A stretch of 33,624 bases of DNA, taken from assembly GCA_964442255.1 (NCBI GenBank), contig CAYTYC010000013.1, positions 1 through 33,624 of the forward strand, written 5' to 3'. Made by a program: the position numbers and the translations under genes. Below the pieces are notes generated by a model. It was not told the origin of the DNA. It did no database searches and saw only the letters and a list, made by a program, of their open reading frames with translations. This document shows, one piece after another, positions 1 through 33,624 of this stretch; position 1 is the stretch's first letter; the number at the start of each line of letters is the position of its first letter. The stretch is from an uncultured archaeon. Its GTDB lineage: Archaea; Iainarchaeota; Iainarchaeia; Iainarchaeales; 1-14-0-10-31-34.

Positions 1-80
1 TATTGTAGAAAGTGACTGGCAACCATGGTATTGTAGAAAGTGACTGGCAACCATGGTATTGTAGAAAGTGACTGGCAACC
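1..80. repeat. Perfect 28-bp tandem repeat (TATTGTAGAAAGTGACTGGCAACCATGG, about 2.9 copies, truncated by window start)
   Basis: Copies at 1-28, 29-56 and 57-80 with no spacers. Confidence 0.9.
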
Positions 81-138
81 AGTTTCTTTTGGTATTGCCT
101 GATTATTAACTGGTGTTGCGTTATAAATTTTTTGCCCC

Positions 139-2188: not shown

Positions 2189-2299
2189 GCACGTGTCCAT
2201 CCGTTTGGGAGGGAAGGGTGAAAAATGGCTGAAGGAAAGCTTACTGAAGCTTCAAATGTGAAGCACGTGTCCATCCGTTTGGGAGGGAAGGGTGAAAAA
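2189..2299. repeat. 37-bp perfect direct repeat flanking a unique 37-bp insert
   Basis: GCACGTGTCCATCCGTTTGGGAGGGAAGGGTGAAAAA at 2189-2225 and 2263-2299. Confidence 0.92.
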
Positions 2300-2567
2300 G
2301 GGTAAAGCGAAGTTTTTTTCCGGGATTTCCTTTAACTTANNNNNNNNNNNNNNNNNNNNNNNNNNNNNNNNNNNNNNNNNNNNNNNNNNNNNNNNNNNNN
2401 NNNNNNNNNNNNNNNNNNNNNNNNNNNNNNNNNNNNNNNATCAGCCAGTTTTTCACGTGGAAGGGTGAAAAAGGGTAAAGCGAAGTTTTTTTCCGGGATT
2501 TCCTTTAACTTAATCAGCCAGTTTTTCACGTGGAAGGGTGAAAAAGGGTAAAGCGAAGTTTTTTTCC
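2286..2567. repeat. 36-bp direct repeat plus 37-bp insert (73-bp period), spanning a scaffold gap
   Basis: GGAAGGGTGAAAAAGGGTAAAGCGAAGTTTTTTTCC at 2286-2321, 2459-2494 and 2532-2567; insert at 2495-2531, with the same insert split 18+19 bp around the N gap. Confidence 0.85.
2340..2439. other. Scaffold gap (100 N)
   Basis: N run. Confidence 1.
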
Positions 2568-2994
2568 CTTCAGCCGAAATAGAGGAATACCTTGACTCAG
2601 GCCCCCATAAAAACCGTAAAAGCTGGATAGGGTTTGCGAGTCTGCAAACCCGCCCCAAAAAAAAAGCGCATTGACTTTACGCATTCTTTCCCGGGATTCG
2701 AGCAAATCGGTCTGGGAAGGCGTGGGCTTGCGCGGGTGGCGGATTCTGCGGTTTTTTCAAGGGTGGAAAAGCTTTACCCGGGTTACAGCATACAGCCTGT
2801 TATGTCCTCCGGTGAAATGCGTGAATTGCACAGGGGTCAGGGAATAAGGGACTGTGAATTGATTCCTGTTCAGGAATTTGCGTGCAGGAAAAGGGATTAC
2901 GCAAGGGCAATGTTCAAAAAGCACCCGCCGAAGAGAAAATGATTTTTTTTTTCCCACAAAACCCATAAAAGGCTTTTTCCGGAAAGCTTTTTTC

Positions 2995-4206
2995 ATGCAG
3001 CCCGACTATTTCCTGAAAACGGCTTTCCGCGAGTTTTACCGCCATAATCCCGTGAATTCTGTGCCGGGCATTGGGCAAAGGGAATTCGGCTATGGCATTT
3101 TCGGCCACAAAATCCTTCAGCGCCACCTTGCTTTCAGGGACGCGAAAGAATTCAATGAATTTCTGGTGAAAGAAGCCCCGCTCTATGTTTCGGCAAGCGC
3201 GGCTTACTACGAGTTCCCGGAAAGAAAGCCCATGGAAGCAAAAAACCGGCTTAAGTCGGACATAGTGTATGAGTTTGACTCCGATGATTTGCGCATAGAC
3301 TGCCAAAATGAACATGACTCCTGGGAATGCAGGTGCGGAAAAAAAGGGAAAGGAATCGTGGAAAGATGCAGCGAGTGCGGGGAAAGGGTGGAGGTAAAGG
3401 AATGGCCTTGCGAAAACTGTTTGGAGGAAGTCAAAAAGCAGATGTTTTCATTGATTGAGCTGGTGAAGGGGGATTTCGGTTTGGAGGAGGGATTAAGCGT
3501 AAACTTTTCGGGCTCGAAGGGCTTTCACCTTCACCTCCGCTCAAAGGAAATTCAGTCCTTAACCAATAACGCAAGAATAGAGCTCCTGGATTATCTTACC
3601 TTGAATGAACTGAACACCGAATTCATTGGGTTCGGGAAACAAAAGAGGCTGCTTTCCCCAAAGCAGGGGGAAGTGAAGGGTTGGGGGAAAAGAATTCTGG
3701 AAGAAATGCAGAAAATAGTCGGGAGGGGGGACGCAAAAGAGCTGGTGAAAAAAAGCGCTGTCGGGCACAAAACCGCGGAAGAAATCGTGAAAAAAAGGGA
3801 TGAAATCCTTGAGGCGCTGGAAAAAGGCGAAAGGCTGCAGTCCTTTCCAAAGGCAGAAAAATTTTGGTCATCCCTTCTTGAATCAATTGTGGAGCAGTTG
3901 ATCCTGAAAATTGACCGCCAGACTTCGGTTGACGCGAGCAAAATCCTCCGTGTTCCGGATTCCCTGCACGGGGGCACGGGGTTCAAGGCAAGCTCAATTC
4001 CACTGGACAAGCTGGGGGAATTTAAGGCGTTCAGCGAAGCAATAGCTTTTTCAAACAATCCAGTGAAGGTATTTATCAGGGAGGCCCCCAAAGTCAGGTT
4101 CGGGGGGCAAAGCTTTGGGCCTTTCTTGCAAGAGGAAGCCGAGCTTCCGGAATACGCGGCGGTTTACTTCGCCGCAAAAGGTGCTGCAAATGGAGTTGTC
4201 CTATGA
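2995..4206 (+). CDS. priS: DNA primase small (catalytic) subunit
   Basis: QREFG, YEFDSDD, FSGSKGFHLH, IDRQTSVDASKILRVPDSLHGGTG; ATG at 2995 chosen over the upstream GTG. Confidence 0.95.
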   Translation: MQPDYFLKTAFREFYRHNPVNSVPGIGQREFGYGIFGHKILQRHLAFRDAKEFNEFLVKEAPLYVSASAAYYEFPERKPMEAKNRLKSDIVYEFDSDDLRIDCQNEHDSWECRCGKKGKGIVERCSECGERVEVKEWPCENCLEEVKKQMFSLIELVKGDFGLEEGLSVNFSGSKGFHLHLRSKEIQSLTNNARIELLDYLTLNELNTEFIGFGKQKRLLSPKQGEVKGWGKRILEEMQKIVGRGDAKELVKKSAVGHKTAEEIVKKRDEILEALEKGERLQSFPKAEKFWSSLLESIVEQLILKIDRQTSVDASKILRVPDSLHGGTGFKASSIPLDKLGEFKAFSEAIAFSNNPVKVFIREAPKVRFGGQSFGPFLQEEAELPEYAAVYFAAKGAANGVVL

Positions 4207-4753
4207 TGAAATAAGGCGGATTCACCGCCTGGAGAAGTCTTCACCAAAACTCACGGAGGTAGAAGAAGACTTTATGGATTCATTGGGCGAATTCCTTCAG
4301 GGCGAAAAAAAAACTTACATGGATTCATTGAAGGACATGAGCTTTTCCAAGGCAAAAAGCTACGGCAACATAAAAAAAATGCTTGAAGAAATTTTTTCAA
4401 TGCGCCAGAGAAAAATTTTGAACCTTGCCCTCATTTCCTCCAGCACAGGGGAAGCGGAGTATTCGAACATGACTTTCCAGGAAAAAGAACTGTGCAGGGA
4501 GCTTGTGAAGGTTTTATCCAGGCACAATGATTCCGCGAAAAAAGTTTTTGACGAATCCGCGCAGGCAAAAACTCCGGCGGGGCAGGAAAAAGATTTAAAT
4601 AAGGTTTCCATGCGCATTCTAAGGGAAGTTCCCTCTTTTGTCGGAACGGATATGAAGGAATACGGCCCTTTCAAGGAAAACCAAACCGTTGAACTTCCGC
4701 CCAAAATCGCGAAACTCTTTGTTTCAAGGAACCTTGGAAAAATGCAGGAGTGA
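4190..4753 (+). CDS. GINS15-family replication protein
   Basis: RQRKILNLA, NMTFQEKELC, C-terminal B domain ILREVPSFVGTDMKEYGPF; conserved position after priS. Confidence 0.88.
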   Translation: MELSYDEIRRIHRLEKSSPKLTEVEEDFMDSLGEFLQGEKKTYMDSLKDMSFSKAKSYGNIKKMLEEIFSMRQRKILNLALISSSTGEAEYSNMTFQEKELCRELVKVLSRHNDSAKKVFDESAQAKTPAGQEKDLNKVSMRILREVPSFVGTDMKEYGPFKENQTVELPPKIAKLFVSRNLGKMQE

Positions 4754-4759
4754 AATTTA

Positions 4760-4957
4760 ATGGCAAAGCCCGAAGTACCGCAGCCCAAAACAAAGTTCAT
4801 TAAGGTAAAGTGCGGAAGCTGCGGAAACGAGCAGGCAATTTTTTCTTCGCCCTCCTCAAAACCCAGGTGCCTTGTGTGCGAACAGGTTTTGGCTTTTCCC
4901 AAAGCCTCAAAGCTCGGGCTTGCGGGAAAAACAAAGGTTGTTAAGGAACTCCAGTAG
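4760..4957 (+). CDS. rps27e: 30S ribosomal protein S27e
   Basis: KFIKVKCGSCGNEQAIFS...CLVC. Confidence 0.95.
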   Translation: MAKPEVPQPKTKFIKVKCGSCGNEQAIFSSPSSKPRCLVCEQVLAFPKASKLGLAGKTKVVKELQ

Positions 4958-5740
4958 GTGAAAATTTTTTTGTCTGAAGAACTGCCGGAAACAGGGGAAG
5001 TGGTTGTATGCAGGGTAAATCGCGTGCTGAATTACGGGGTTTTCGTTGACCTGCTGGAGTACGGGGACGCGAAAGGGTTTGTGCACGTTTCCCAGGTTGC
5101 CTCAAGGTGGGTAAAAAACATCAGAAACTATGTGAAGGAAAACCAGCTCCGCGCGGCAAAAGTTTTGTACATTGACTCCCAAAAAAACCAGATTGACCTG
5201 AGTTTGGTCAAGGTTTCCCCAAGGGAACAAAGAAAAAAAATAGAGGAATACAAGCAATTCAAGCGCGCCCAAAAACTGGTTGAAGTGCTGGCGAAAAACG
5301 CCAAAAAGCCTTTTGACTCGGTTTGGGAGGGGATTGCCGAGCCCTTAATCCATGAATTCGGCTCCCTTCACGCAGGCTTCCAGGAAATTGCTTTAAGGAA
5401 AGGGGAGGCAGCAAAAGGAATCAGCCCTGAATGGCAGAAGCCATTGGTTGAGCTTGTCTCCAAAAGCATTTCCGTGCCAAAGAAAACGGTTAAAGGAACC
5501 CTTGTGCTTTCCTCCACCGCCCCGGACGGGGTGGAGGCAATCAAAAAGGCATTGAATGAAGCGAAAAAAGCCGCAAAGGGAAAGGAAACGGAAATATATT
5601 ACGAGGGCTCAAGCAATTATGTTTTAAAGGTTAGCTCGCACGATTTTAAGAGCGCGGAAAAACAGCTGAAAGAGCTCGGGGAAAAGGCGCTGGAAAGCAT
5701 TAAAGCTTCGGGCGGAACAGGGGAATTCAAAACCAAGTAA
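4958..5740 (+). CDS. eif2a: Translation initiation factor aIF-2 alpha
   Basis: S1 domain LPETGEVV...YGVFVDLLEY...HVSQVASRWVKNIR, then IDLSL and PDGVEAIK; true start may be the TTG at about 4970. Confidence 0.95.
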   Translation: MKIFLSEELPETGEVVVCRVNRVLNYGVFVDLLEYGDAKGFVHVSQVASRWVKNIRNYVKENQLRAAKVLYIDSQKNQIDLSLVKVSPREQRKKIEEYKQFKRAQKLVEVLAKNAKKPFDSVWEGIAEPLIHEFGSLHAGFQEIALRKGEAAKGISPEWQKPLVELVSKSISVPKKTVKGTLVLSSTAPDGVEAIKKALNEAKKAAKGKETEIYYEGSSNYVLKVSSHDFKSAEKQLKELGEKALESIKASGGTGEFKTK

Positions 5741-5775
5741 ACTTTTTGGGAAAAGTTTAAGCCGGGGTTGATTAA

Positions 5776-6549
5776 ATGGCGACAAAAATAACTGTTTTAA
5801 AGGATGTTAAGCTCAAGAACGGCGTGATGTTCACCGGCCTCCCCGGAATAGGTTTGGTGGGAAAAATTGCGGTGGACTACCTGCTCAAGCAGTTGAAGGC
5901 GGAAAAGGTTGCCGAAATTTTTTCTGACTCTTTTCCGCCGAGCGTGCACACAAAGGACTCCCTGTTGGAGCTCATAAAGGACGAAATCTATCACGTTAGC
6001 TCAAACGGAAACGACTTCCTGTTTTTGGCCGGCCCTGTCCAGCCCGCATTGGACGTGAGAAGCCCTTCCGCTTTGGAGCACTATGAGTTCGCGGAAAAGA
6101 TTGCGGAAAAAGCCAAGGAACTCGGTGTAAAGGAAATTTACACTCTCGCGGGAATCAACATAGGGGAAAGGAGAATGAACGCGGAACCCAAAATCGTTGT
6201 GGCGGCTTCCTCAAAAAAAACCCTGGAGGAATTCAGGAAACTCGGCGTCAAATTAAGCAAGGACGAGGGCTTAATCAGCGGCGCGGCGGGGCTGATTTTG
6301 GGGGTTGGAAAAGAAAAAGGCATGGGTGGGGCGTGCCTTATGGGCGAAACGAACGCGCGCCTCATTTACGGCGACCACGGCTCCGCGAAAAAGCTGATTG
6401 AATTGCTTGCAAAAAAGTACGGCTTCAAAATCCACATGGGCGAAATTGAAAAGGAGTCCAGGGAAATCGAGAAAGCCTTCACCCAGTTAAGCAAGAGCCT
6501 GGAAGAACAGGAAGACACGGGTGAAGGCGGGTTAAGCTACGTCCGGTAA
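5776..6549 (+). CDS. PAC2-family proteasome assembly chaperone
   Basis: GLPGIGLVGKIAVDYL, ISGAAGLILG, CLMGET, C-terminal SYVR. Confidence 0.9.
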   Translation: MATKITVLKDVKLKNGVMFTGLPGIGLVGKIAVDYLLKQLKAEKVAEIFSDSFPPSVHTKDSLLELIKDEIYHVSSNGNDFLFLAGPVQPALDVRSPSALEHYEFAEKIAEKAKELGVKEIYTLAGINIGERRMNAEPKIVVAASSKKTLEEFRKLGVKLSKDEGLISGAAGLILGVGKEKGMGGACLMGETNARLIYGDHGSAKKLIELLAKKYGFKIHMGEIEKESREIEKAFTQLSKSLEEQEDTGEGGLSYVR

Positions 6550-6551
6550 AC

Positions 6552-6843
6552 ATGCATTCAAAGGCTTTTGTTTTTCTGTTTGCTGTTTTTTTGGGGATTT
6601 TTTATTTTTTGGCTGTGTCCACGGCAGGGGGAAAGCGGAAACAACCCAAAAGCTATGCGGTGAAATAACCTCCGAAAATGTGCAGCAGGTTTCAGCATCG
6701 TTTACATAATAGAAAAAACTGTCGGCGAAGGAAGCAGGCTTGCATACCGCGATTCCCCGGGAAACTTCATTGAAAACGCTGTAAGGGAGGATGTGCCGGT
6801 TTTTGAAACCAAAACAGGAAAAAAAAACTCACTGCATTACTGA
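6552..6843 (+). pseudogene. Frameshifted lipoprotein remnant
   Basis: Signal-like MHSKAFVFLFAVFLGIF; a lipobox FGC appears only after a shift in the T runs (about 6598-6610); further shifted fragments follow. Confidence 0.5.
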
Positions 6844-6913
6844 AAGAGGAAAAGGGTGCCCTGAATACTGAATAGGGCTGTTTGGAAATAGGCTGCTGCA
6901 CTAAAATTGACTG

Positions 6914-8188
6914 CTAAAATTCTTTCAGCGTTTTTTGCCCTGTGCAGGGCTCCCTGCATTCCAGCTGTTTTCCTAACTCAATTTTTTTTCTTTCAAACTC
7001 TTGCTTTGAGTCGCACAAAACCGGCTTTCCGTAGTTTCCCCCCCCGCCGGGAATGAACAAAACCCAGTCATTGCGGAAGGCGGAGATTTTTTCCGCAGTC
7101 CCTTTTTCGACTTCCCTTAACTCTTCAATTGGCGTGTCGGCCAAAACATTTATTTCGTTTCCGAACCTTTCCACAAACCGTTTCCACTGCTCCTGCACCT
7201 TCACCCCGAAAACGTTTTTCGCTCCCAAAGAAAGCTGAATTATTTCCGCCAAGGGAAGAAGGTGAAGGTACTTCGGCCTGAAGCCCGGGTGTTCGCCTTC
7301 ACCCGAATCCGCGAGCTCCAGAATCCTGTCCTTCACCCCTTTTTTAACGCTTCTTCCGCATTCCGGGCACTTCCATTTTCCTGTTTCAGCCTCCTTTAAT
7401 GAAAGCTTTGCGTAGCAGTTGGAGCACGCACTGCAATGGTATTTTCCTTCTCTCGGGTCAAGCCCCGCATTCAGCGTAACCAGCGCATCATTCTTCCTCT
7501 CCAAAGCCTTCTTAAGGGAATTGAAGTCCGGTTTCCGGAGATTTATTCGTGTGAATTCCCTTCCAATCCGGTAAGGCCACGGCGAATGCGCGTCAGAGTT
7601 TGTGAGAAAACTCAGCGAATGGTTTTCCTTCATCAAATCCGCCAAATCCGTGTCCGCACTTAACCCAAGCTCAATGAAGTGGATGTTTTTTGCCTGTGCC
7701 CCGTAGCAGTCCCTTATTGAATTGAAGTGCGCGTAGATTCCAAAGTAAGGGGTGAACGCATGCGCTGCGCCAATCATTCCGCCTGCGTCCAAAACAATTT
7801 CCGCAATTTTCTCCGCATTCAGCCTGATTCTCGGCCTGCCTCCCCCAAAGGAGTCCATGTCATTGGAGTAAGGCTTCAGTTTTTGCTTGGCTTCCTGCAC
7901 TGAATTGAAATCCGGAAAGAAAAGAATGTGGTGAACTGAGTCAATGCACTGCACTTCCGTCTGCAGAATGAAGGGCATGGAATGCTGTTTGGATAGGAAA
8001 ACCCCGTTGCTTTCCTCCAGGGTTTCCTTTGCATGCAAAATCCATTCTTTGTGGAGAATGTCCGCGGTTCCCAGCAAATTCAACCCCTTTAATCTGGATT
8101 GCTCCGCGATTGTGGAAATAAGCATTTTCTTGCTTACCCCCCCGCTGTAAGGGCTGTGGAAATGCAAATCGCAGTTGAATTCCTTCAT
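6914..8188 (-). CDS. PHP-family phosphoesterase with Zn ribbon (TIGR00375/COG1379-like)
   Basis: DLHFHSPYS, GTAD, AHAFTP, ELGLSAD, NSDAHS, GKYH, CxxC..CxxC, PGGGGNYG. Confidence 0.9.
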   Translation of the reverse strand: MKEFNCDLHFHSPYSGGVSKKMLISTIAEQSRLKGLNLLGTADILHKEWILHAKETLEESNGVFLSKQHSMPFILQTEVQCIDSVHHILFFPDFNSVQEAKQKLKPYSNDMDSFGGGRPRIRLNAEKIAEIVLDAGGMIGAAHAFTPYFGIYAHFNSIRDCYGAQAKNIHFIELGLSADTDLADLMKENHSLSFLTNSDAHSPWPYRIGREFTRINLRKPDFNSLKKALERKNDALVTLNAGLDPREGKYHCSACSNCYAKLSLKEAETGKWKCPECGRSVKKGVKDRILELADSGEGEHPGFRPKYLHLLPLAEIIQLSLGAKNVFGVKVQEQWKRFVERFGNEINVLADTPIEELREVEKGTAEKISAFRNDWVLFIPGGGGNYGKPVLCDSKQEFERKKIELGKQLECREPCTGQKTLKEF

Positions 8189-8232
8189 TTTCTCCCCAAG
8201 TATTAATTAAAAAAGATTGCACATTCTTTAAA

Positions 8233-10668
8233 TTGGTTTCCATGGAATCAAAAGCCCCAATTCCAAAGGAAGCGCGCTTTTGGGAAACGAGAAAAGAGGG
8301 CGTTGTGCAGTGCCGCGCGTGCAACCGCAACTGCGTGATTGCGGAAGGCAAAACAGGGCTGTGCAGGGTGAGGAAAAACTTTGAAGGAAAGCTCCGTTCC
8401 CTGGTTTACGGAAAAACACTTACCCTGGATGTTGACCCGGTTGAAAAAAAGCCCTTGTTTCATTTCCGTCCGGGAACGGAGTGCCTGGGAATCAGCACAT
8501 ATGGCTGCAATTTTTTCTGCCAGCATTGCTTTACTCCCGAGACTTTAATCGCAACTGACGCGGGGGTCAAAAAAATTAAAGATTTATACAAAAGCGGAAA
8601 AAATGAAAGAAAGGAACTGAATTTTAATGTTAAGGATTTAAATTATCCAAAAGCCATTACGCATAATGGAACAGATTCTGAAATAATTCATTCATTTGAA
8701 CACCACTATGACGGAGTTTTACTGTCTATTAAGCCACATTACACGCCAGGCTTTAGTTGTACCCCGAATCATGAATTGTTTGTGTGCAGGGCCCGTTCTT
8801 CTAACAAAATTGAAAAAATTAGGGCAGATGAACTTTGCCTTTTCGATTATCTGGTGATTCCAAAGATTAAGATTAACCCTGAAAATAAACAAGTATTGGA
8901 CACAAAGAAAATTCTCAGCGCAATTGAAGTGAAGACTAATAAAGCAAAAAGAAAAGTTATCCCTAACTTCGATAAAATAGTGAGATTGAAAGAGGAAGGT
9001 TGTTCTTCAAGAGAAATAGGGAAAATAATTGGTTTGCATCCCGCCTATGTGGGAACTTTCTTTTCTAAACTGAAAAAGAAGGGAAAAGATCACGTGTTTC
9101 ATGACACTATTTTAATAAAAGAAAAAGGAAACAGGGTTAAATTCAAGAACGAGAAAGGCAAAGGGGTTCCGAAGAAACTTCCCATCAACGGAGATTTTGC
9201 TTCTTTGCTGGGTTATTATTGTTCTGAAGGCTGCATAATAAAACATAAGAAAAGACAAAACAGTTATGGCCTGGTTTTCAGTTTTGGCGCTCATGAGCCG
9301 CATTTGGTCAATAGCGTCAAAAATTTGGGGAAAAAAATCTTTGGACTAGAGCCCAAATGTAAACGCACAAAGTCTAACACAGTTAACATTCATTTTTATA
9401 GCTCTTCTGTGGCCCTGCTTTTTAAGCTTCTTTGCGGGGCGGGGGCCCGCAATAAGGTTGTGCCTGAAATCCTGTTTCGTGCAGACAAAAGGGTTGTCAG
9501 CAGTTTTCTTTACGCTTACGCTGAAGGCGACGGATGGGTTGGGGATGGCAGCCACCCGATAAGCATTAACACAGTTTCAAAAGAGCTTGCCGTTGGAGTT
9601 TATTGCCTTTTTTTGAGGACAGGGTTTATCCCAAGTTTCCATGAATGGAACCCAAAGCCCAAAAAAAGGATTCAAGGGAGAGAAATTAATCAGTCACCGC
9701 TTTTTTATGTGAAACTTTATTCAGAGAGATCCCGGAAAAGGTTTGCTTTGGGAACCAGAAAATCCGGGCACGATATTAAGGGCAAAAGCAGAGTGCTGTA
9801 TATCGAGAAAAAAAACCATTACCTTATCCCGGTCCACAGAATATCAAAACAGGATTACACAGGCCTTGTTTACAATTTGGAGGTTTTAGGTGACCACTCA
9901 TACCTGGCAAATTTTGTTGCGGCGGGAAACTGCCAGAACTTCCATTTAAGCCAGGAATGGGGGGAAGGTGCGCTGGAAAAAGTGCCTTTCCGTTCTCCGG
10001 AGGAGGTGGTGCAGGCGGCGATTTCCGCGGGCGTTCCCGGGATTGCGTACACTTACACCGAACCCACTGTTTTCATTGAATACTGCCTGGACATAATGGA
10101 AGAAGCGAAGGAAAAAGGCCTGTACAACGTGTTTGTAAGCAACGGCTACATGGGAAAAGGGGTTGTAAAAGAGGCATCCAAAACACTGGACGCAATAAAC
10201 ATTGACCTAAAGGGAAACGGCCTCTTCTATAACGAGGTTTGCGGGCAGGCGAAAAAGGAAAAGGTTTTGGAAAACATTAAGGCTTTCCACGAAAGGGGGG
10301 TGCATGTGGAGGTCACAAACCTCATCATCCCCGGCTTCAACGACAATGAAAAGGATTTCAGGGAAACCGCGGAATTCATTGCCTCTTTGGATAAGGAAAT
10401 GCCCCTGCATTTTTCGCGTTTCCACCCCCAATTCAAAATGGATTGCCTTTCCCCCACGCCCGAGGAAAAACTTTTGAAGGCAAAGGAGATTGCGGAGAAA
10501 ACAGGGCTGAAATTCGTTTACCTCGGAAATTTGGGGAAAGACGGGGACACCCGCTGCAAAAAGTGCGGTGCCATTCTGGTTAAAAGAAGCGGGTTTTCAG
10601 CTGAGGTTGAAGGGCTGGGGAAAGGAAAATGCGTTAAATGCGGGGCGGAAAACAATTTTATCGCCTGA
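8233..10668 (+). CDS. amrS: AmmeMemoRadiSam system radical SAM enzyme (PFL-activase-like), intein-containing
   Basis: CRACNRNC, GLCRVR, DPVEKKPLFHFRPG, GCNFFCQH|CQN, IAYTYTEP, NIDLKG, EVTNLIIPG, PLHFSRFHP; start could be 8242. Confidence 0.9.
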   Translation: MVSMESKAPIPKEARFWETRKEGVVQCRACNRNCVIAEGKTGLCRVRKNFEGKLRSLVYGKTLTLDVDPVEKKPLFHFRPGTECLGISTYGCNFFCQHCFTPETLIATDAGVKKIKDLYKSGKNERKELNFNVKDLNYPKAITHNGTDSEIIHSFEHHYDGVLLSIKPHYTPGFSCTPNHELFVCRARSSNKIEKIRADELCLFDYLVIPKIKINPENKQVLDTKKILSAIEVKTNKAKRKVIPNFDKIVRLKEEGCSSREIGKIIGLHPAYVGTFFSKLKKKGKDHVFHDTILIKEKGNRVKFKNEKGKGVPKKLPINGDFASLLGYYCSEGCIIKHKKRQNSYGLVFSFGAHEPHLVNSVKNLGKKIFGLEPKCKRTKSNTVNIHFYSSSVALLFKLLCGAGARNKVVPEILFRADKRVVSSFLYAYAEGDGWVGDGSHPISINTVSKELAVGVYCLFLRTGFIPSFHEWNPKPKKRIQGREINQSPLFYVKLYSERSRKRFALGTRKSGHDIKGKSRVLYIEKKNHYLIPVHRISKQDYTGLVYNLEVLGDHSYLANFVAAGNCQNFHLSQEWGEGALEKVPFRSPEEVVQAAISAGVPGIAYTYTEPTVFIEYCLDIMEEAKEKGLYNVFVSNGYMGKGVVKEASKTLDAINIDLKGNGLFYNEVCGQAKKEKVLENIKAFHERGVHVEVTNLIIPGFNDNEKDFRETAEFIASLDKEMPLHFSRFHPQFKMDCLSPTPEEKLLKAKEIAEKTGLKFVYLGNLGKDGDTRCKKCGAILVKRSGFSAEVEGLGKGKCVKCGAENNFIA
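8527..9930 (+). mobile_element. Intein with LAGLIDADG homing endonuclease (468 aa)
   Basis: Block A CFTPETLI, block B CTPNHELF, endonuclease motifs LLGYYCSEG and FLYAYAEGDG, block F/G VYNLEV..DHSYLAN..AGN followed by Cys+1. Confidence 0.95.
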
Positions 10669-10683
10669 TTTCCGGAAACCGCC

Positions 10684-10794
10684 ACTACAGAAACAAAATC
10701 ACACAAGCCCAAGGAAATGCGTTGTCGGGGTTTTGTTGATTGTTTTTTATTTTATGAACTACAGAAACAAAATCACACAAGCCCAAGGAAATGC
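10684..10794. repeat. 37-bp perfect direct repeat flanking a unique 37-bp insert
   Basis: ACTACAGAAACAAAATCACACAAGCCCAAGGAAATGC at 10684-10720 and 10758-10794. Confidence 0.92.
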
Positions 10795-11066
10795 AGTACA
10801 AGCATTGAGCCAATTCCAGCCAGGCCAAACACCACGGTTACGGCGAGTGTCGGGAGAAGGGGCAAGCTGATTTTGAACACAAAGTAAATTATTGCCAGAA
10901 CCACGAGCCCGGCAATGGTGTTTGCAATTATTTTCTTTAAGAAAAAGAATATTGCAACCGCGCCCACGATAAGCAGTATTCCTATGACCAGCACCGCGGG
11001 CTCTCCCGCAAAGGATGCCGCGGCGCCAAGCCCTTCCTTTAGGGTTTCAGTGCCCGCTTCAGCCAT
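10773..11066 (-). CDS. Small membrane protein, BofA-like
   Basis: Three hydrophobic segments, KIIANTIAGLVVL...FGLAGIG; start codon lies inside the 15-bp tandem repeat, so the start is uncertain. Confidence 0.7.
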   Translation of the reverse strand: MAEAGTETLKEGLGAAASFAGEPAVLVIGILLIVGAVAIFFFLKKIIANTIAGLVVLAIIYFVFKISLPLLPTLAVTVVFGLAGIGSMLVLHFLGLV

Positions 11067-11268
11067 TCCGTTCAAAGCCATTCCGTTCAAAGCCATTCCG
11101 TTCAAAGCCATTCCNNNNNNNNNNNNNNNNNNNNNNNNNNNNNNNNNNNNNNNNNNNNNNNNNNNNNNNNNNNNNNNNNNNNNNNNNNNNNNNNNNNNNN
11201 NNNNNNNNNNNNNNAGCCATTCCGTTCAAAGCCATTCCGTTCAAAGCCATTCCGTTCAAAGCCATTCC
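11061..11268. repeat. Perfect 15-bp tandem repeat AGCCATTCCGTTCAA flanking a scaffold gap
   Basis: About 3.6 copies on each side of the N run at 11115-11214. Confidence 0.9.
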
Positions 11269-11330
11269 TTATTAACTGGAACTGAATCCATTAAAAGGCT
11301 TTTTTAAACCTTTTTTTTCCCACTTTTACT

Positions 11331-11966
11331 ATGCCTTTCACGGAGGAACAGAAAAAGATTTCCGCGGCGCTTGTGCACGGCCCCAGAACCGCGGAAGAAC
11401 TGGCGGAAGAAACAGGGTTCACTGAATCAAGGGTGGCTGAAGAGATAAAAGGGCTTATGAAACTGAAGCTTGTTTCAAGGGAAGGCTTTCCCACCAAATA
11501 CAAGATAGACGAGAAAATCTGGGGGCAGGCCAAGAAAAGAAGGGAGGTAGCGGAAGCAGACAAGTTCCGCCTCCGGATGAACATCATAATTGAGGTGCAG
11601 GGAATTCTGGAGGAATTGGTGGAAAAACAGCTGAAGGACATTGAAAAAAAGCTTAAGGAAGACGAGGACTTCACAGTGTACAGCGCGGAGCACGCGGAAA
11701 CAGCAAAGGAAGGCGAGCATTTCACGGGGTTCATTGAAGTCGGCTTGACTGTAAGGGATTTCCGCGCGCTAATGAAGCTTGTGTTCAGCTTTGGCCCCTC
11801 TTCCATAGAGGTGTTGAGGCCCGAAAAAATCGATCTCACTTTGGATGAACTGCAGGACGGATTGCATTACGCCTCCGAAATGGTCCAATCCTATGTGGCT
11901 TACATCGCGCAAAAGCTTACCCGCGATGAGCTGGAGCGGTTCAACAAGGACCTTTTCGGAAGATAA
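11331..11966 (+). CDS. Hypothetical protein with N-terminal winged HTH
   Basis: GPRTAEELAEETG..ESRVAEEIKGLMKLKLV; C-terminal FGPSSIEVLRP domain. Confidence 0.75.
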   Translation: MPFTEEQKKISAALVHGPRTAEELAEETGFTESRVAEEIKGLMKLKLVSREGFPTKYKIDEKIWGQAKKRREVAEADKFRLRMNIIIEVQGILEELVEKQLKDIEKKLKEDEDFTVYSAEHAETAKEGEHFTGFIEVGLTVRDFRALMKLVFSFGPSSIEVLRPEKIDLTLDELQDGLHYASEMVQSYVAYIAQKLTRDELERFNKDLFGR

Positions 11967-12097
11967 AATTTTTTTGTTATCCCTTATTGACGAAAAAAAC
12001 AACCGAACCCTTACGCTTATTGCCGAAGAGGAGTTCTGCAAAGAGCCGAAGTTTGCCCTTTAAACGGCTAACGGAGGCAAATCCTTTCCCTGCTTAC

Positions 12098-12113
12098 CGA
12101 AACCTATATAAAG
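12098..12113 (+). promoter_or_regulatory. BRE-TATA promoter of the S-layer gene
   Basis: CGAAACC-TATATAAAG about 25 bp upstream of a structured leader. Confidence 0.65.
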
Positions 12114-12133
12114 GCTAATAAGCAACCAATTAT

Positions 12134-12186
12134 AGAGCCTTTTTATGTCTTTAAACTTTCAGATGGTTTTAGGCGTTTAGGGCTCT
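12134..12186 (+). promoter_or_regulatory. Long 5'-UTR stem-loop
   Basis: Nested pairing AGAGCC/GGCTCT, ATGTCT/AGGCGT and AAACT/GGTTT; RBS GAGGTGA at 12204-12210. Confidence 0.6.
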
Positions 12187-12218
12187 GATTATTGTTAGAT
12201 TGTGAGGTGAAACAAAAC

Positions 12219-15077
12219 ATGAGAGGTTTTAATGTAAAAAAACTCGTTGCAATCGGAACAGGTGCCGCATTAATTGGTGCTGCATTGGCTCCGGTTTCAG
12301 CGGACTTAAGGGACGACCTCTATGACAGCGACGGAACTCCTTTGGCAAGCGTTGTCGTTGGTGACAATGCTGCCTTGAGCGACGTTGTGTGGGCAGGCAA
12401 CATTGCAGCGGCAATGGCCTTGAAGGCCTATTCCGAGGTGCCGATTACTTGCGACACCGCGGGAAGCTGCGCAACAGACGCCACCCCGACACTGACAGGA
12501 TTAATGGTTGACTTGTCTGTCGGCGGAACCACCACTGTCACAGGGGGAAAAACATTTTTCGAAGACATGAATTCAATGGCAGGCACATCAGGGAGAGAAA
12601 CAAACTTCTATAACCAGCAGGTAACCTACTCAAGCATTCCGAACCTGTACTACGACAGCGCAAGGTCACAGACATACAACGGCAGCTCCTACACTACAAC
12701 CCTCCAGGAAAAGCTCAACTTTACTTTGAATGCCGAATTTGATGACGTAGTGAAAAAGGCATTGGCCGGAAGAATTGGAATCGGCCAATTGAAGTATGTG
12801 TTGAGCCTGGGAACAGGAGTGAATGCCTGGGAATCAGGCACAGGAACAGTGAAGTACACGGATGACGGAAACGACAATGTAAGGTTTCCGATTTTCGGCG
12901 ACGACTACCTGCTGAAAACAGCCGACTACAACTCAGGATCCCTTGAGCTGGTTAAGTCTGCGGCGGAGAAAACCTACGTTGACGGCGACAAAATTGAGGG
13001 CCTTGAAGGAAAGGACGGAGAAACCTATTACATTGAAGTGGGCGGAGGAGTGACCATCAGCAACGTGACAAACGTTGAGCTGAGGCTTTACAAGGAAGAC
13101 GGCACACTTGTCCAGTCCGACAACTTTCCGGCGGGAGACGTAAGGTTTTACAGCGACGACACGGGGGAAGAGATTCTCCAGACGCTGGTCAACATCAGCG
13201 CAATCGGAACCACAACAACGGCGGACGCGACAGTTTACAAGCCCCAGATTCTGGTGGGCTCAAACAGGCTGTTGATCTACCACGACAAGGGTTTCAGTCT
13301 TGAAAACGGAGGATACGACTCAAGCCTGACAGACAGCGAATACCTGTACAAAGCGAAAATCAACTGGGGCGACGCTGCAACCTCTGCGACAGGAAAAATC
13401 AAGGACATAAACATTGAGAACTGGACCCAGCTCAGCTTCACAGGCCAGGATGCTTTGGGAGTGGGCGATGAAGCCACTTTCCCGGGGGAAATGGGCTCAG
13501 TGAAGTTTTTGGGTTTCCAGCTGCCGGGATTTGAATCCGTAAGCAAGACAGAGAGAACCACCGTGGTAACCTTTGGAAATGAGAAACTGACTTACAAGGA
13601 TTCCACATTTGAATCATCACACGAGCTTCCATTCTACAGGGATTCTCTTTCACTGTCAAATCTGGGCAGTTGGTCAACATCAATTGACGGAAAGAATTTT
13701 TGGGCGATGGTGAATACAGCGGACAAAAATGTTTTGTCATACAATTCGGCGACATCAGCGTACGACGGATCCCACACTTGCATCGGAGACAACAACTACA
13801 TCAACGGCCAGGTGGTAGAAGTTTCAAGCGTTGACGCAACCAATGCCACAATCAACGGAACAGCAACATACGAAGTCGGCGACACAGTGGACATCAACGG
13901 ACAGCATTTCACATACTCCGGGCATGATACCACTGTTGGCTGTGTCTACCTGACAGCGGACGGAAACGTTACCCTTCGAAAGGATTCAGCAACAGGCGAA
14001 TTGGTAATGGATTACTTCTACGCTGATGAAAACGTCGGGACCGGCATGCCCATTGGCTTTGAAGGAACAAGTGATGTGAGCACAGACTACATCGTTATGG
14101 TGGACGAAAGTGCATCTTCCGGGACTTCAGACACTGCAAATATCTGGCTATTCCTTGACGGCCAGAACATAGCCACACAGTACGGCAAACTCATTACAGT
14201 GAAGGGAACAGACACCGCCGAAGACGGATCAGGCACAATGGACGTAAACTACTACGAACCAAATCATCCATCACTTCCGTCATCACTTAACGGAAGCCCA
14301 AATTATACTGCAAACGACCACAAGATAGCCTGGTTTGAACTGGATGAAGACGAGGGCGGAGTAAAAGACTTCAACGTCTTCATTGACACAGTGTACGACT
14401 TCGGAAACCTTGTGAACCCGGACGACACCACACTAAGCAACTACCCCTATGAAGTCCATTACCTGCCTAACGGAACCGACGACAGCGTAACCTGGTCGTT
14501 GAGCGAAAGCCCAACCAAGGGCTACCCGACCGAAGGATACTCCGATTGGGGGACAAAAGTGAGTGTCAGCGACGACATTGCTACCTTCACTTTCCCGGAA
14601 AACAGGCCTCAATTGGAAGTCCTGGTTTCAGGCACAGGAACAAGCACTGAAGTCAGCGGCGGAGAAGACTTTGAAGGCGTGGAATCCGGAGAAATAGTGA
14701 CAACCACAGACGGAACAAAAGTAACGGTGACTGACATCACCTACGTAAGCAATGTGTGCGAAGGAACTGTCGGAGGAGACATTGTCTGCAACACAGACCC
14801 TTCACTGGCGATAACGCCTGTAAGCAGGGTCGGCTACCTGGTCGGCCTGGCTTCAGAGGCGCCGCTTGGAACACGCGTTGTGGTGGGCGGATGGAAAGTC
14901 AACAGCCTGGCAAGCGGAGTCAAATTCGGTGGAGTTGACATCGAATCCGAACTCAAGGCTTCAGGCGACTTTGTTGCAGAGAAAGCCGACAACGGCGACT
15001 ACATCGTTGCGGGCTGGACTGCAAGCGACACCGTCGCAGCAGCGAAAGAATTCATTGACATGCTGGAAGCAATTTGA
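12219..15077 (+). CDS. S-layer protein
   Basis: Signal KKLVAIGTGAALIGA; S-layer N motif VVVGDNAALSDVVWAGNIAA; C motif VVVGG..VN...IVAGWTASDTVAAAKEFI; acidic and Thr-rich with many NxS/T sequons. Confidence 0.9.
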   Translation: MRGFNVKKLVAIGTGAALIGAALAPVSADLRDDLYDSDGTPLASVVVGDNAALSDVVWAGNIAAAMALKAYSEVPITCDTAGSCATDATPTLTGLMVDLSVGGTTTVTGGKTFFEDMNSMAGTSGRETNFYNQQVTYSSIPNLYYDSARSQTYNGSSYTTTLQEKLNFTLNAEFDDVVKKALAGRIGIGQLKYVLSLGTGVNAWESGTGTVKYTDDGNDNVRFPIFGDDYLLKTADYNSGSLELVKSAAEKTYVDGDKIEGLEGKDGETYYIEVGGGVTISNVTNVELRLYKEDGTLVQSDNFPAGDVRFYSDDTGEEILQTLVNISAIGTTTTADATVYKPQILVGSNRLLIYHDKGFSLENGGYDSSLTDSEYLYKAKINWGDAATSATGKIKDINIENWTQLSFTGQDALGVGDEATFPGEMGSVKFLGFQLPGFESVSKTERTTVVTFGNEKLTYKDSTFESSHELPFYRDSLSLSNLGSWSTSIDGKNFWAMVNTADKNVLSYNSATSAYDGSHTCIGDNNYINGQVVEVSSVDATNATINGTATYEVGDTVDINGQHFTYSGHDTTVGCVYLTADGNVTLRKDSATGELVMDYFYADENVGTGMPIGFEGTSDVSTDYIVMVDESASSGTSDTANIWLFLDGQNIATQYGKLITVKGTDTAEDGSGTMDVNYYEPNHPSLPSSLNGSPNYTANDHKIAWFELDEDEGGVKDFNVFIDTVYDFGNLVNPDDTTLSNYPYEVHYLPNGTDDSVTWSLSESPTKGYPTEGYSDWGTKVSVSDDIATFTFPENRPQLEVLVSGTGTSTEVSGGEDFEGVESGEIVTTTDGTKVTVTDITYVSNVCEGTVGGDIVCNTDPSLAITPVSRVGYLVGLASEAPLGTRVVVGGWKVNSLASGVKFGGVDIESELKASGDFVAEKADNGDYIVAGWTASDTVAAAKEFIDMLEAI

Positions 15078-15089
15078 TTCCGGCAAACA

Positions 15090-15130
15090 AAAAAGGTCTT
15101 TTAAAGGCCTTTTCTTCTTCTTTTTTTTTT
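15090..15130 (+). terminator. Hairpin plus T-tract terminator
   Basis: AAAAGGTC...GGCCTTTT followed by a long T run. Confidence 0.6.
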
Positions 15131-15192
15131 AATTTCCTTCCAGCCGGAGGCACGTCCCGGCAGGAATTTTTTGGCGTGAATTCCAGTGCCTC

Positions 15193-15370
15193 AAAAACTA
15201 TTTCGTGGAGCCCCGGCTGTTTTAATGGGCGAATGAATTGTTTCCGTCAGAATTGGACTGTGTTGGACTGGTTTGTGTTGTTAAGCCGGCTGTTTTAATG
15301 GGCGAATGAATTGTTTCCGTCAGGCCGTTTGCGGGAACAAAAATTCAGCGGATTTTTAACCCGCCGTAGT
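15193..15370. repeat. Dispersed ~105-bp intergenic element, copy 1 (carries a duplication+insert)
   Basis: Similar to 22377-22483, including identical CAGGCCGTTTGCGGGAACAAAAATTC. Confidence 0.8.
15213..15323. repeat. 38-bp perfect direct repeat flanking a unique 35-bp insert
   Basis: CCGGCTGTTTTAATGGGCGAATGAATTGTTTCCGTCAG at 15213-15250 and 15286-15323. Confidence 0.92.
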
Positions 15371-28581: not shown

Positions 28582-28873
28582 AGCTGAGGGAGGGAGTCGA
28601 ACCCTCTTCTCCCGGTTGCCGCTTGCCGGTTTCGTCCGGCAGTAACGATGTCCTGCCTCCTCCGCTTTGCTTCGGAGGTAGAACTGCTCGCGCTTTCACG
28701 CTCGCACACCGTTTTAAGGCGGGCGCACCGATGTCCTGCCTCCTCCGCTTTGCTTCGGAGGCGGACCTGCTCGCTTTCGCTCGCAGGCAGTGTCCCGCCC
28801 GGAAGCCCCCACTTCCCGTCCGGAAAATAAAGGGCATCTGCAGCCGGGTGCATAGCCGTTCTGCCACCCCAGC
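28582..28873 (-). tRNA. tRNA-Cys(GCA) with a 221-nt intron (exons 28873-28838 and 28616-28582)
   Basis: Acceptor GCTGGGG/CCTCAGC with U discriminator; anticodon stem CCCGG/CCGGG; loop CT-GCA-G^A; T arm GAGGG-TTCGACT-CCCTC; BHB with CUGC/GCGG helix and AGA/CAA bulges; T-tract after the 3' end. Confidence 0.9.
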
Positions 28874-33476: not shown

Positions 33477-33624
33477 TTTTTTTCTTCCTTTTAATATTCA
33501 TTAACTGTCCAGAATTCCCCTGTCAAGTATTTTTTCCATTCCTCGTTAACCTGTTTCTGTATTTCCGCGTTTTTTTCTTCCTTTTAATATTCATTAACTG
33601 TCCAGAATTCCCCTGTCAAGTATT
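33477..33624. repeat. 93-bp-period tandem duplication of a minus-strand gene's 3' end (truncated by window end)
   Basis: TTCTTCCTTTTAATATTCATTAACTGTCCAGAATTCCCCTGTCAAGTATT occurs twice, 93 bp apart; the unit encodes NAEIQKQVNEEWKKYLTGEFWTVNEY*. Confidence 0.8.

Follow-up and report, generated by a model that had tools for sequence, protein, structure and literature searches.

What process could place a short fragment of DNA between two copies of its target at unrelated sites of one archaeal chromosome? The question is raised by the window considered here, which is the whole of a 33,624-nucleotide (nt) scaffold (C13), one of 51 scaffolds in an archaeal genome bin of 1,277,402 nt (93.8% complete, 0.23% contamination). 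A preliminary description of the window had pointed to four places where 36 to 38 nt are duplicated around an insert of similar length, in CRISPR geometry, and had predicted many more across the genome. All four units were found where it had placed them, and they belong to a class counted at 25 loci genome-wide, in which the duplicated stretches (here called arms) differ at every locus, as the description had said of those in the window. The units are probably the products of off-target integration by an enzyme of the Cas1-Cas2 type.

Units of fixed geometry across the genome

The genome's own scaffolds were scanned for exact direct repeats of at least 30 nt around an insert of at least 15 nt. 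The histogram of their periods has 19 repeats at 70-74 nt and 10 at 75-79 nt, the latter bin also taking in protein-type tandem repeats of period 78, and between zero and three repeats in each of the five neighboring 5-nt bins (55-69 and 80-89 nt); further entries near 146 nt are harmonics, and those near 173 and 246 nt are copies shifted by scaffold gaps. A mismatch-tolerant scan gives the same spike, at 71-76 nt where the preliminary description had expected 72-75 nt, and adds six units whose arms differ at one or two positions. After inspection and the removal of look-alikes, 25 loci are left. Their arms measure 34-42 nt (mostly 35-39 nt) and their inserts 32-40 nt (mostly 35-38 nt), and their periods run from 71 to 79 nt; the period is 71-76 nt at 24 loci and 79 nt at the remaining one. 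Exact duplicates of 35 nt or more at such a density cannot have arisen by chance.

The commonest form is a unit of 1.5 copies (arm-insert-arm), which favors insertion, because simple tandem duplication gives whole copies. Eleven loci are single units with identical arms, and the six with slightly diverged arms (one or two mismatches) are single units as well. Three loci carry 2.5 copies (C7 46340, C24 9020, and C30 9338), and a fourth, at C11 3653-3902, has four arms, with one insert present twice and a second insert once. In the others a scaffold gap splits the locus, and the insert is the same to either side of it (C1 81885, C13 2286, C14 24347, and C33 6907). Counted over all forms, the arms are identical at 19 loci. 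When 800 of the 840 kb of a closed genome of the same order were scanned in the same way, no units were found, and about 560 kb of a bin of the same family (420 kb of its largest contig and ~140 kb of others) also yielded none outside one canonical CRISPR array.

Several look-alikes were removed from the class. At C21 15121 (period 74) the periodicity breaks off 3 nt before a copy is complete, at C17 16805 the arm is merely 13 nt and adjoins a tRNA gene, and at C17 27770 an arm of 47 nt and an insert of 25 nt lie at a scaffold end; C6 45337 proved to be a 37-nt tandem without inserts, and C23 22602 an 18-nt coding tandem. Insert-less tandems of 35-37 nt are found at C6 45297-45640, C16 25775-25870, C45 1713-1795, and C3 3999-4068, two of them broken by gaps, and their unit length matches the arm length of the insertion units.

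The four units of the window illustrate the class. Unit 1 (period 74) is an exact direct repeat of 37 nt, ending in GTGAAAAA, at 2189-2225 and 2263-2299, around a 37-nt insert (2226-2262) with no match elsewhere in the genome. The last 14 nt of its second arm are the first 14 nt of the arm of unit 2, and with arms that overlap in this way two events therefore struck nearly the same site. Unit 2 had been described as a repeat around an insert with a period of 73 nt, which is correct as to repeat, insert, and period, but the locus is really an array of at least three 36-nt arms (2286-2321, 2459-2494, and 2532-2567) with identical inserts, interrupted by a 100-N scaffold gap (2340-2439). Its first insert copy (2322-2458) is represented by 2322-2339 and 2440-2458 around the gap, and its insert is present at least twice, in full as the 37 nt at 2495-2531; since these inserts do not differ, the exact duplicate extends over 55 nt, and the stretch 2286-2339 recurs at +173 and +246.

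Unit 3 (period 74) starts 15 nt past the stop of an open reading frame (ORF) at 8233-10668, with 37-nt arms at 10684-10720 and 10758-10794 around a 37-nt insert (10721-10757); the second arm contains the stop codon (10773-10775) of a minus-strand ORF at 10773-11111. Unit 4 (period 73) has 38-nt arms at 15213-15250 and 15286-15323 around a 35-nt insert (15251-15285), and its first arm is part of an intergenic element that this genome holds in multiple copies; positions 5-38 of the arm recur as ~15 near-copies on other scaffolds. The arms of unit 4 and of C14 24347 sit in neighboring parts of this same element. The second arm and the sequence following it (15286-15360) constitute an element with ~15 near-identical copies on other scaffolds, within which the summed contig depth of a sequencing run (X1, introduced below) reaches 122 at 15338. 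The inserts of units 3 and 4 are both G+T-rich, and for neither did the genome or the public collections searched yield a match. For the insert of unit 3 there is no exact match in genome_contigs, for that of unit 4 none in metagenome_contigs, and for three window inserts none in viral_contigs; the left flank of unit 3 was itself not found in metagenome_contigs, a collection that may omit records near the window's genome.

The loci are not placed at random with respect to genes. With units collapsed and the four gap-broken loci left out, an open frame of at least 150 amino acids (aa) is present at 8 of 21 loci, compared with 85% of 1500 positions drawn at random from the genome (binomial P = 1.3e-6), and the median longest frame is 132 aa at the loci and 340 aa at random positions. 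Within the window, units 1, 2, and 4 are intergenic and no long ORF is broken, in agreement with the preliminary description's statement that none of the units disrupts a gene, but in other parts of the genome long open frames are split by at least two units, and two more lie within long frames that they keep open. On scaffold C4 a unit splits a CARDB-domain surface protein (332 + 169 aa as assembled, 431 aa when collapsed), and on C22 another splits a 331-aa hypothetical protein that has no close orthologue in eight genomes of the same family. The two in-frame units are each 72 nt long; one adds 24 codons to a GT4 glycosyltransferase (Pfam match) on C16, and on C1 the other lies in an open frame of 179 aa.

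The arms also tend to end alike. In 6 of the 19 units with perfect arms, TGAAA occurs in the final 9 nt of the arm, in either orientation, compared with a null mean of 0.67, and the family-wise chance of any 5-mer reaching six is 0.0072 (5000 random sets of genomic 37-mers). Typical arm ends are GTGAAAG, GTGAAAAA, and CTGAAAG, and a canonical 30-nt repeat on a contig of a same-order bin ends in ATTGAAAT; the likeness is to repeats of other bins of the order, which may not be the cognate repeat of this organism.

Captured DNA between the arms

A search of the whole genome with each of the 26 distinct inserts gave, for five of them, one stretch elsewhere with 100% identity over 35-38 nt. The sources for units C1 17573, C22 23378, and C27 6124 lie on scaffold C3, at 8668-8702, 62838-62872, and 55055-55092, respectively; that for C15 14606 is at C27 4706-4742, and that for window unit 2 at C4 64396-64435, on the minus strand. 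The C3 sources at 8668-8702 and 62838-62872 are in chromosomal genes, encoding a carbonic anhydrase and a tyrosine recombinase. The match ends exactly at the insert boundary in three of the five cases and extends 2 or 5 nt into the arm in the other two; in window unit 2, the first 35 nt of the insert and 5 nt of the arm end match the C4 source, and the last 2 nt of the insert are untemplated. Because they match distant loci exactly, the inserts are short captured pieces of DNA, neither local sequence nor junk, and the preliminary description's suggestion that they record captured DNA finds direct support in these 5 of 26.

With three of the five sources on C3 (71 kb, 5.6% of the genome), the distribution is suggestive of a capture hot spot on that scaffold, from a small count. 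One of the C3 sources also has a unit (C3 55942) 850 nt away. Several of the inserts without a source (2226-2262 and 15251-15285 in the window, and C4 1747-1784) carry internal direct repeats of 6-9 nt, and two window inserts are strongly G+T-rich.

Probable off-target integration and the alternatives to it

The simplest process that would give a fixed duplication of ~37 nt, a fixed capture of ~36 nt, unrelated sites, and a weak preference at the site end is off-target CRISPR adaptation. We therefore regard the units as the probable outcome of full-site integration at off-target positions by a ruler integrase of the Cas1-Cas2 type, a scatter of neo-CRISPR units that arose naturally. Such an integrase would cut the two strands of an ordinary genomic site ~37 nt apart, and a processed fragment of ~35-37 nt would be joined between the cuts; gap repair would then duplicate the 37-nt target, leaving an arm-insert-arm unit with an arm that differs from site to site. 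The fragments would be captured DNA, some of it taken from the chromosome of the cell itself; sites with a CRISPR-repeat-like end (...TGAAA[G/A]) would be preferred, and insertions into essential coding sequence would be lost by selection. Unequal recombination or slippage between the 37-nt arms could enlarge a unit (to arm-insert-arm-insert-arm) or remove it again and restore the empty site, and we infer that the multi-copy loci with identical inserts arose by such enlargement. The identical arms at 19 loci, the exact identity of inserts with their sources, and a difference between two samples at unit 3 (see below) indicate that the activity is recent or ongoing, and the six diverged units suggest some time depth.

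Several observations weigh against this interpretation. First, there is no match to Cas1 (PF01867) or Cas2 (PF09827) in the 93.8%-complete bin, although positive controls matched, and none to the Cas6 C-terminal domain (PF01881) or to RAMP (PF03787), both of which matched in control genomes. A weak match considered as a Cas4 candidate is a NucS endonuclease. The single match to PF07282, considered as a Cas12f-like candidate, turns out to be a TnpB of 384 aa whose gene follows directly downstream of that of an IS200-type TnpA, and neither an array nor cas genes lie nearby; the type V-F (Cas12f) system put forward in the preliminary description is not borne out. The promiscuous ruler integrase that it proposed fares better, agreeing with the geometry, the captured DNA, and the arm-end motif, but its enzyme, for which the bin has no cas1 or cas2, is one that we infer. 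In the absence of these genes from the bin, the enzyme would be encoded on unbinned DNA or a mobile element, reside in another cell, or have been recently lost.

Second, no canonical CRISPR array was seen in the repeat scan of the 51 scaffolds, and the only CRISPR-Cas found within the family is probably misbinned: a module of Cas6, reverse transcriptase, and Cas1 and an array with a 37-nt repeat lie on contigs C5 and C6 of a same-family bin, at 50-51% GC compared with 36-38% GC for its main contigs. Because of this mismatch, the system was dropped as a weak guide to the cognate repeat. Third, the same insert is present at least twice at 8 of the 25 loci, which counts against adaptation because sequential spacer acquisition would give different inserts, and the outermost, gene-proximal arm at C11 shares just 28 of 35 nt with the other arms there. 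Fourth, 21 of the 26 inserts have no identified source in the bin. The five protospacers are too few to call a protospacer-adjacent motif; the upstream bases are T-rich in the four inspected, with uncertain orientation, and the one source match that reaches 5 nt into an arm could hint at microhomology. Finally, the sequencing evidence given below comes from contigs of runs and not from raw reads, and the empty site of unit 3 rests on one contig.

It is possible, as a more tentative proposal, that the integrase is supplied from outside the chromosome, by a plasmid, a virus, or an attached partner cell, or that it is a ruler integrase of an undescribed kind, and that proto-CRISPR arrays are seen in this genome as they arise de novo. 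Single units would in that case grow by duplication, and one locus already has two different inserts.

A process independent of Cas proteins, in which staggered breaks of ~37 nt are filled with a fragment of ~36 nt by a new integrase or by break-repair capture, would be compatible with the failure to find cas1, cas2, cas6, or RAMP genes in the bin, with the repetition of identical inserts, which is unlike CRISPR adaptation, with the 5-nt overlap between one source match and its arm, and with the lack of units in the two relatives scanned. We nonetheless consider it unlikely. Arm and insert lengths both fall within CRISPR ranges, the TGAAA arm end resembles the end of a CRISPR repeat, and we know of no other enzyme class with target duplications this long; those of casposases are 14-15 bp. 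Template switching at microhomology was considered and set aside, as the return junction has no homology in the two cases compared by eye (cases 1 and 3), which also counts against break-repair capture.

That the units are artifacts of library preparation, amplification, or assembly, absent from cells, is in our judgment very unlikely. The assembly offers some grounds for suspicion: the scaffold set has 33 gaps of N, its 100- or 10-N gaps and many of its scaffold ends, including both ends of the window, are flanked by exact 55-mers, and it has the look of a de Bruijn assembly of short reads in which k went up to 55. Units are also absent from the two relatives scanned. An assembler with k of 55 would, however, need supporting 55-mers for an arm-insert-arm path, and random chimeras would lack the two tight rulers, the avoidance of long frames, and the common arm-end motif. 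In addition, six units have diverged arms.

The runs were examined as assembled Logan contigs over 14 kb, with joints noted among the contig pieces listed. Run X1 is the probable source of the bin, and its Logan contigs are an assembly at k=31, independent of the bin's assembler; X1 is thus an independent witness as to the assembler alone and not as to the presence of the units. The preliminary description had itself raised the concern of assembly chimeras, and this is answered at the level of contigs for unit 1, where a 97-nt X1 contig spans 2196-2292, comprising 30 nt of one arm, the whole insert, and 30 nt of the other arm, at a depth of 6.3 compared with 6.1 in the left flank. Since insert-arm junctions occur at flank depth, they should be present in most reads. 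X1 depth is even, at ~8-9.5 over the 14 kb and unlike that of amplified DNA, outside three bins at units 2-4 (12.7-35.7); at unit 2, the summed contig depth is 17.4 in the bin 2371-2841 and 8.2 alongside.

Run X2, from a different sample of the same study, has two base differences across the 14 kb. One X2 contig, at a depth of 4.61, links 10683 straight to 10758 and thus represents the site of unit 3 in its empty form, and at the joint 37 nt fit either side; X1 has no such joint among the contig pieces listed. Unit 3 therefore differs between the two samples, with the empty form in X2. In a third run (X3), next to none of the window stretch is present. The X1 junctions, the X2 empty site, and the non-random placement argue that the units are real DNA rather than assembly error.

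We also find it very unlikely that the units are ordinary minisatellites formed by replication slippage, with periods that lie near 73 nt by chance. Eight loci do have at least 2.5 copies with identical inserts, and the genome holds many other tandems of wide-ranging period, including the spacer-less ones of 35-37 nt. However, slippage copies the whole local sequence, whereas the commonest form here is 1.5 copies, and it accounts neither for five inserts that are exact copies of distant loci nor for a period of 71-76 nt at 24 of 25 unrelated loci. It also predicts that the empty site should contain the insert once, and the X2 site at 10684 is without it. Most improbable of all are working orphan mini-CRISPR arrays served in trans by an effector encoded elsewhere, for although the geometry is that of CRISPR and one locus has two different inserts, the arm differs at each locus such that no single repeat-binding nuclease or effector could process all of them, five inserts would target the cell's own chromosome, and no effector genes were found in the bin.

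Relation to known systems and other features of the window

The units resemble the canonical arrays of same-order bins in repeat length (~30-37 nt), spacer length (~35-44 nt), period (~65-81 nt), and repeat ends of the ...TTGAAAT type. Contigs of these bins carry arrays in which 37-nt repeats alternate with 35-44-nt spacers or a 30-nt repeat with 35-39-nt spacers, although for at least two of the array contigs the GC content is far from that of their own bins or of this genome, which may reflect misbinning. Canonical arrays are built on a single repeat with unique spacers, have a leader, and usually lie near cas genes, whereas here each locus has its own arm and usually a single insert. None of the loci combines one repeat, at least three units, and different spacers, and those with multiple arms mostly repeat the same insert. 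The duplications known for casposons and transposons measure 2-15 bp and arise by a staggered cut and fill-in around a kilobase-sized element with terminal repeats. The units share with them the duplication of a target, but the insert is a random fragment of 36 nt.

The event itself is known from experiments. Over-produced Escherichia coli Cas1-Cas2 is reported to integrate at off-target genomic sites and to seed new arrays (Nivala, Shipman and Church 2018, Nat Microbiol 3:310), and these neo-CRISPR loci reportedly share with the present units a spacer-length insert at a non-CRISPR site, a repeat-length duplication, repeat-like sites, and proto-arrays with a single spacer. They differ in being rare events in cultures under over-expression, whereas the units described here are found in a natural, uncultivated archaeon, at ~25 loci per 1.28 Mb and at consensus frequency, with ~37-nt arms, some self-derived inserts, a bin without cas genes, and a third of the loci expanded. 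For Pyrococcus furiosus Cas1-Cas2 in vitro, off-target sites are reported to share sequence features with the repeat (PMC6698737). That system is likewise archaeal, with repeat-resembling off-target sites and a spacing set by the repeat, but it was studied on plasmid DNA in vitro, whereas the units here are genomic scars whose enzyme is deduced. One citing preprint describes the natural evidence for off-target integration as circumstantial and limited to two species.

Our full-text literature search found no natural genome with dozens of such scars, although Nivala et al. 2018 or its supplements may hold examples. What appears to be new is the natural and archaeal setting, in a bin without cas genes, the ~25 loci, the partly self-derived inserts, and the frequent expansion. 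If off-target integration is indeed responsible, the loci would form a natural catalogue of the site preference of the integrase and of both its rulers, and would be direct evidence that adaptation machinery acts as a natural mutagen, with genes split, a glycosyltransferase lengthened by 24 codons, and self DNA captured. They would also provide a test case for the birth and expansion of new CRISPR arrays, and in a bin without cas genes the source of the enzyme becomes a sharp, testable question. Scattered units of this kind can break short-read assemblies and mislead CRISPR array finders.

The IS200/IS605 element containing the TnpB gene looks complete (C21 4189-5759), with a 139-aa Y1 transposase followed by the 384-aa TnpB, and the diverged unit C21 3005 lies ~1.1 kb from it. 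The same-family CRISPR contigs mentioned above carry telomere-like 7-nt repeats at their starts, and the array has a duplicated spacer and an N-gap.

Among the proteins encoded in the window, which comes from an archaeon, are GINS, eIF2-alpha, the two subunits of primase, a PAC2 protein, and an S-layer-like protein; the window has no match in Rfam. The ORF upstream of unit 3 (8233-10668) encodes an 811-aa radical SAM protein split by an intein with a LAGLIDADG homing-endonuclease domain (Pfam). At 11046-11283, a 15-nt tandem repeat is present in 3.6 copies on each side of the second 100-N gap; it lies within the minus-strand ORF at 10773-11111, which runs into the gap. At the start of the window (1-84), a 28-nt unit is repeated three times in tandem, and at its end (33477-33624) an exact 55-nt stretch occurs twice, 93 nt apart, the scaffold's final 55 bases being its second copy. 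These terminal repeats look like assembly-graph loops at k=55 and fall outside the class of units studied. Two adjoining 81-nt copies (77% identity, period 83) with a common GC-rich, hairpin-like core lie at 28626-28789, and scaffold C17 ends in a sequence that resembles them.

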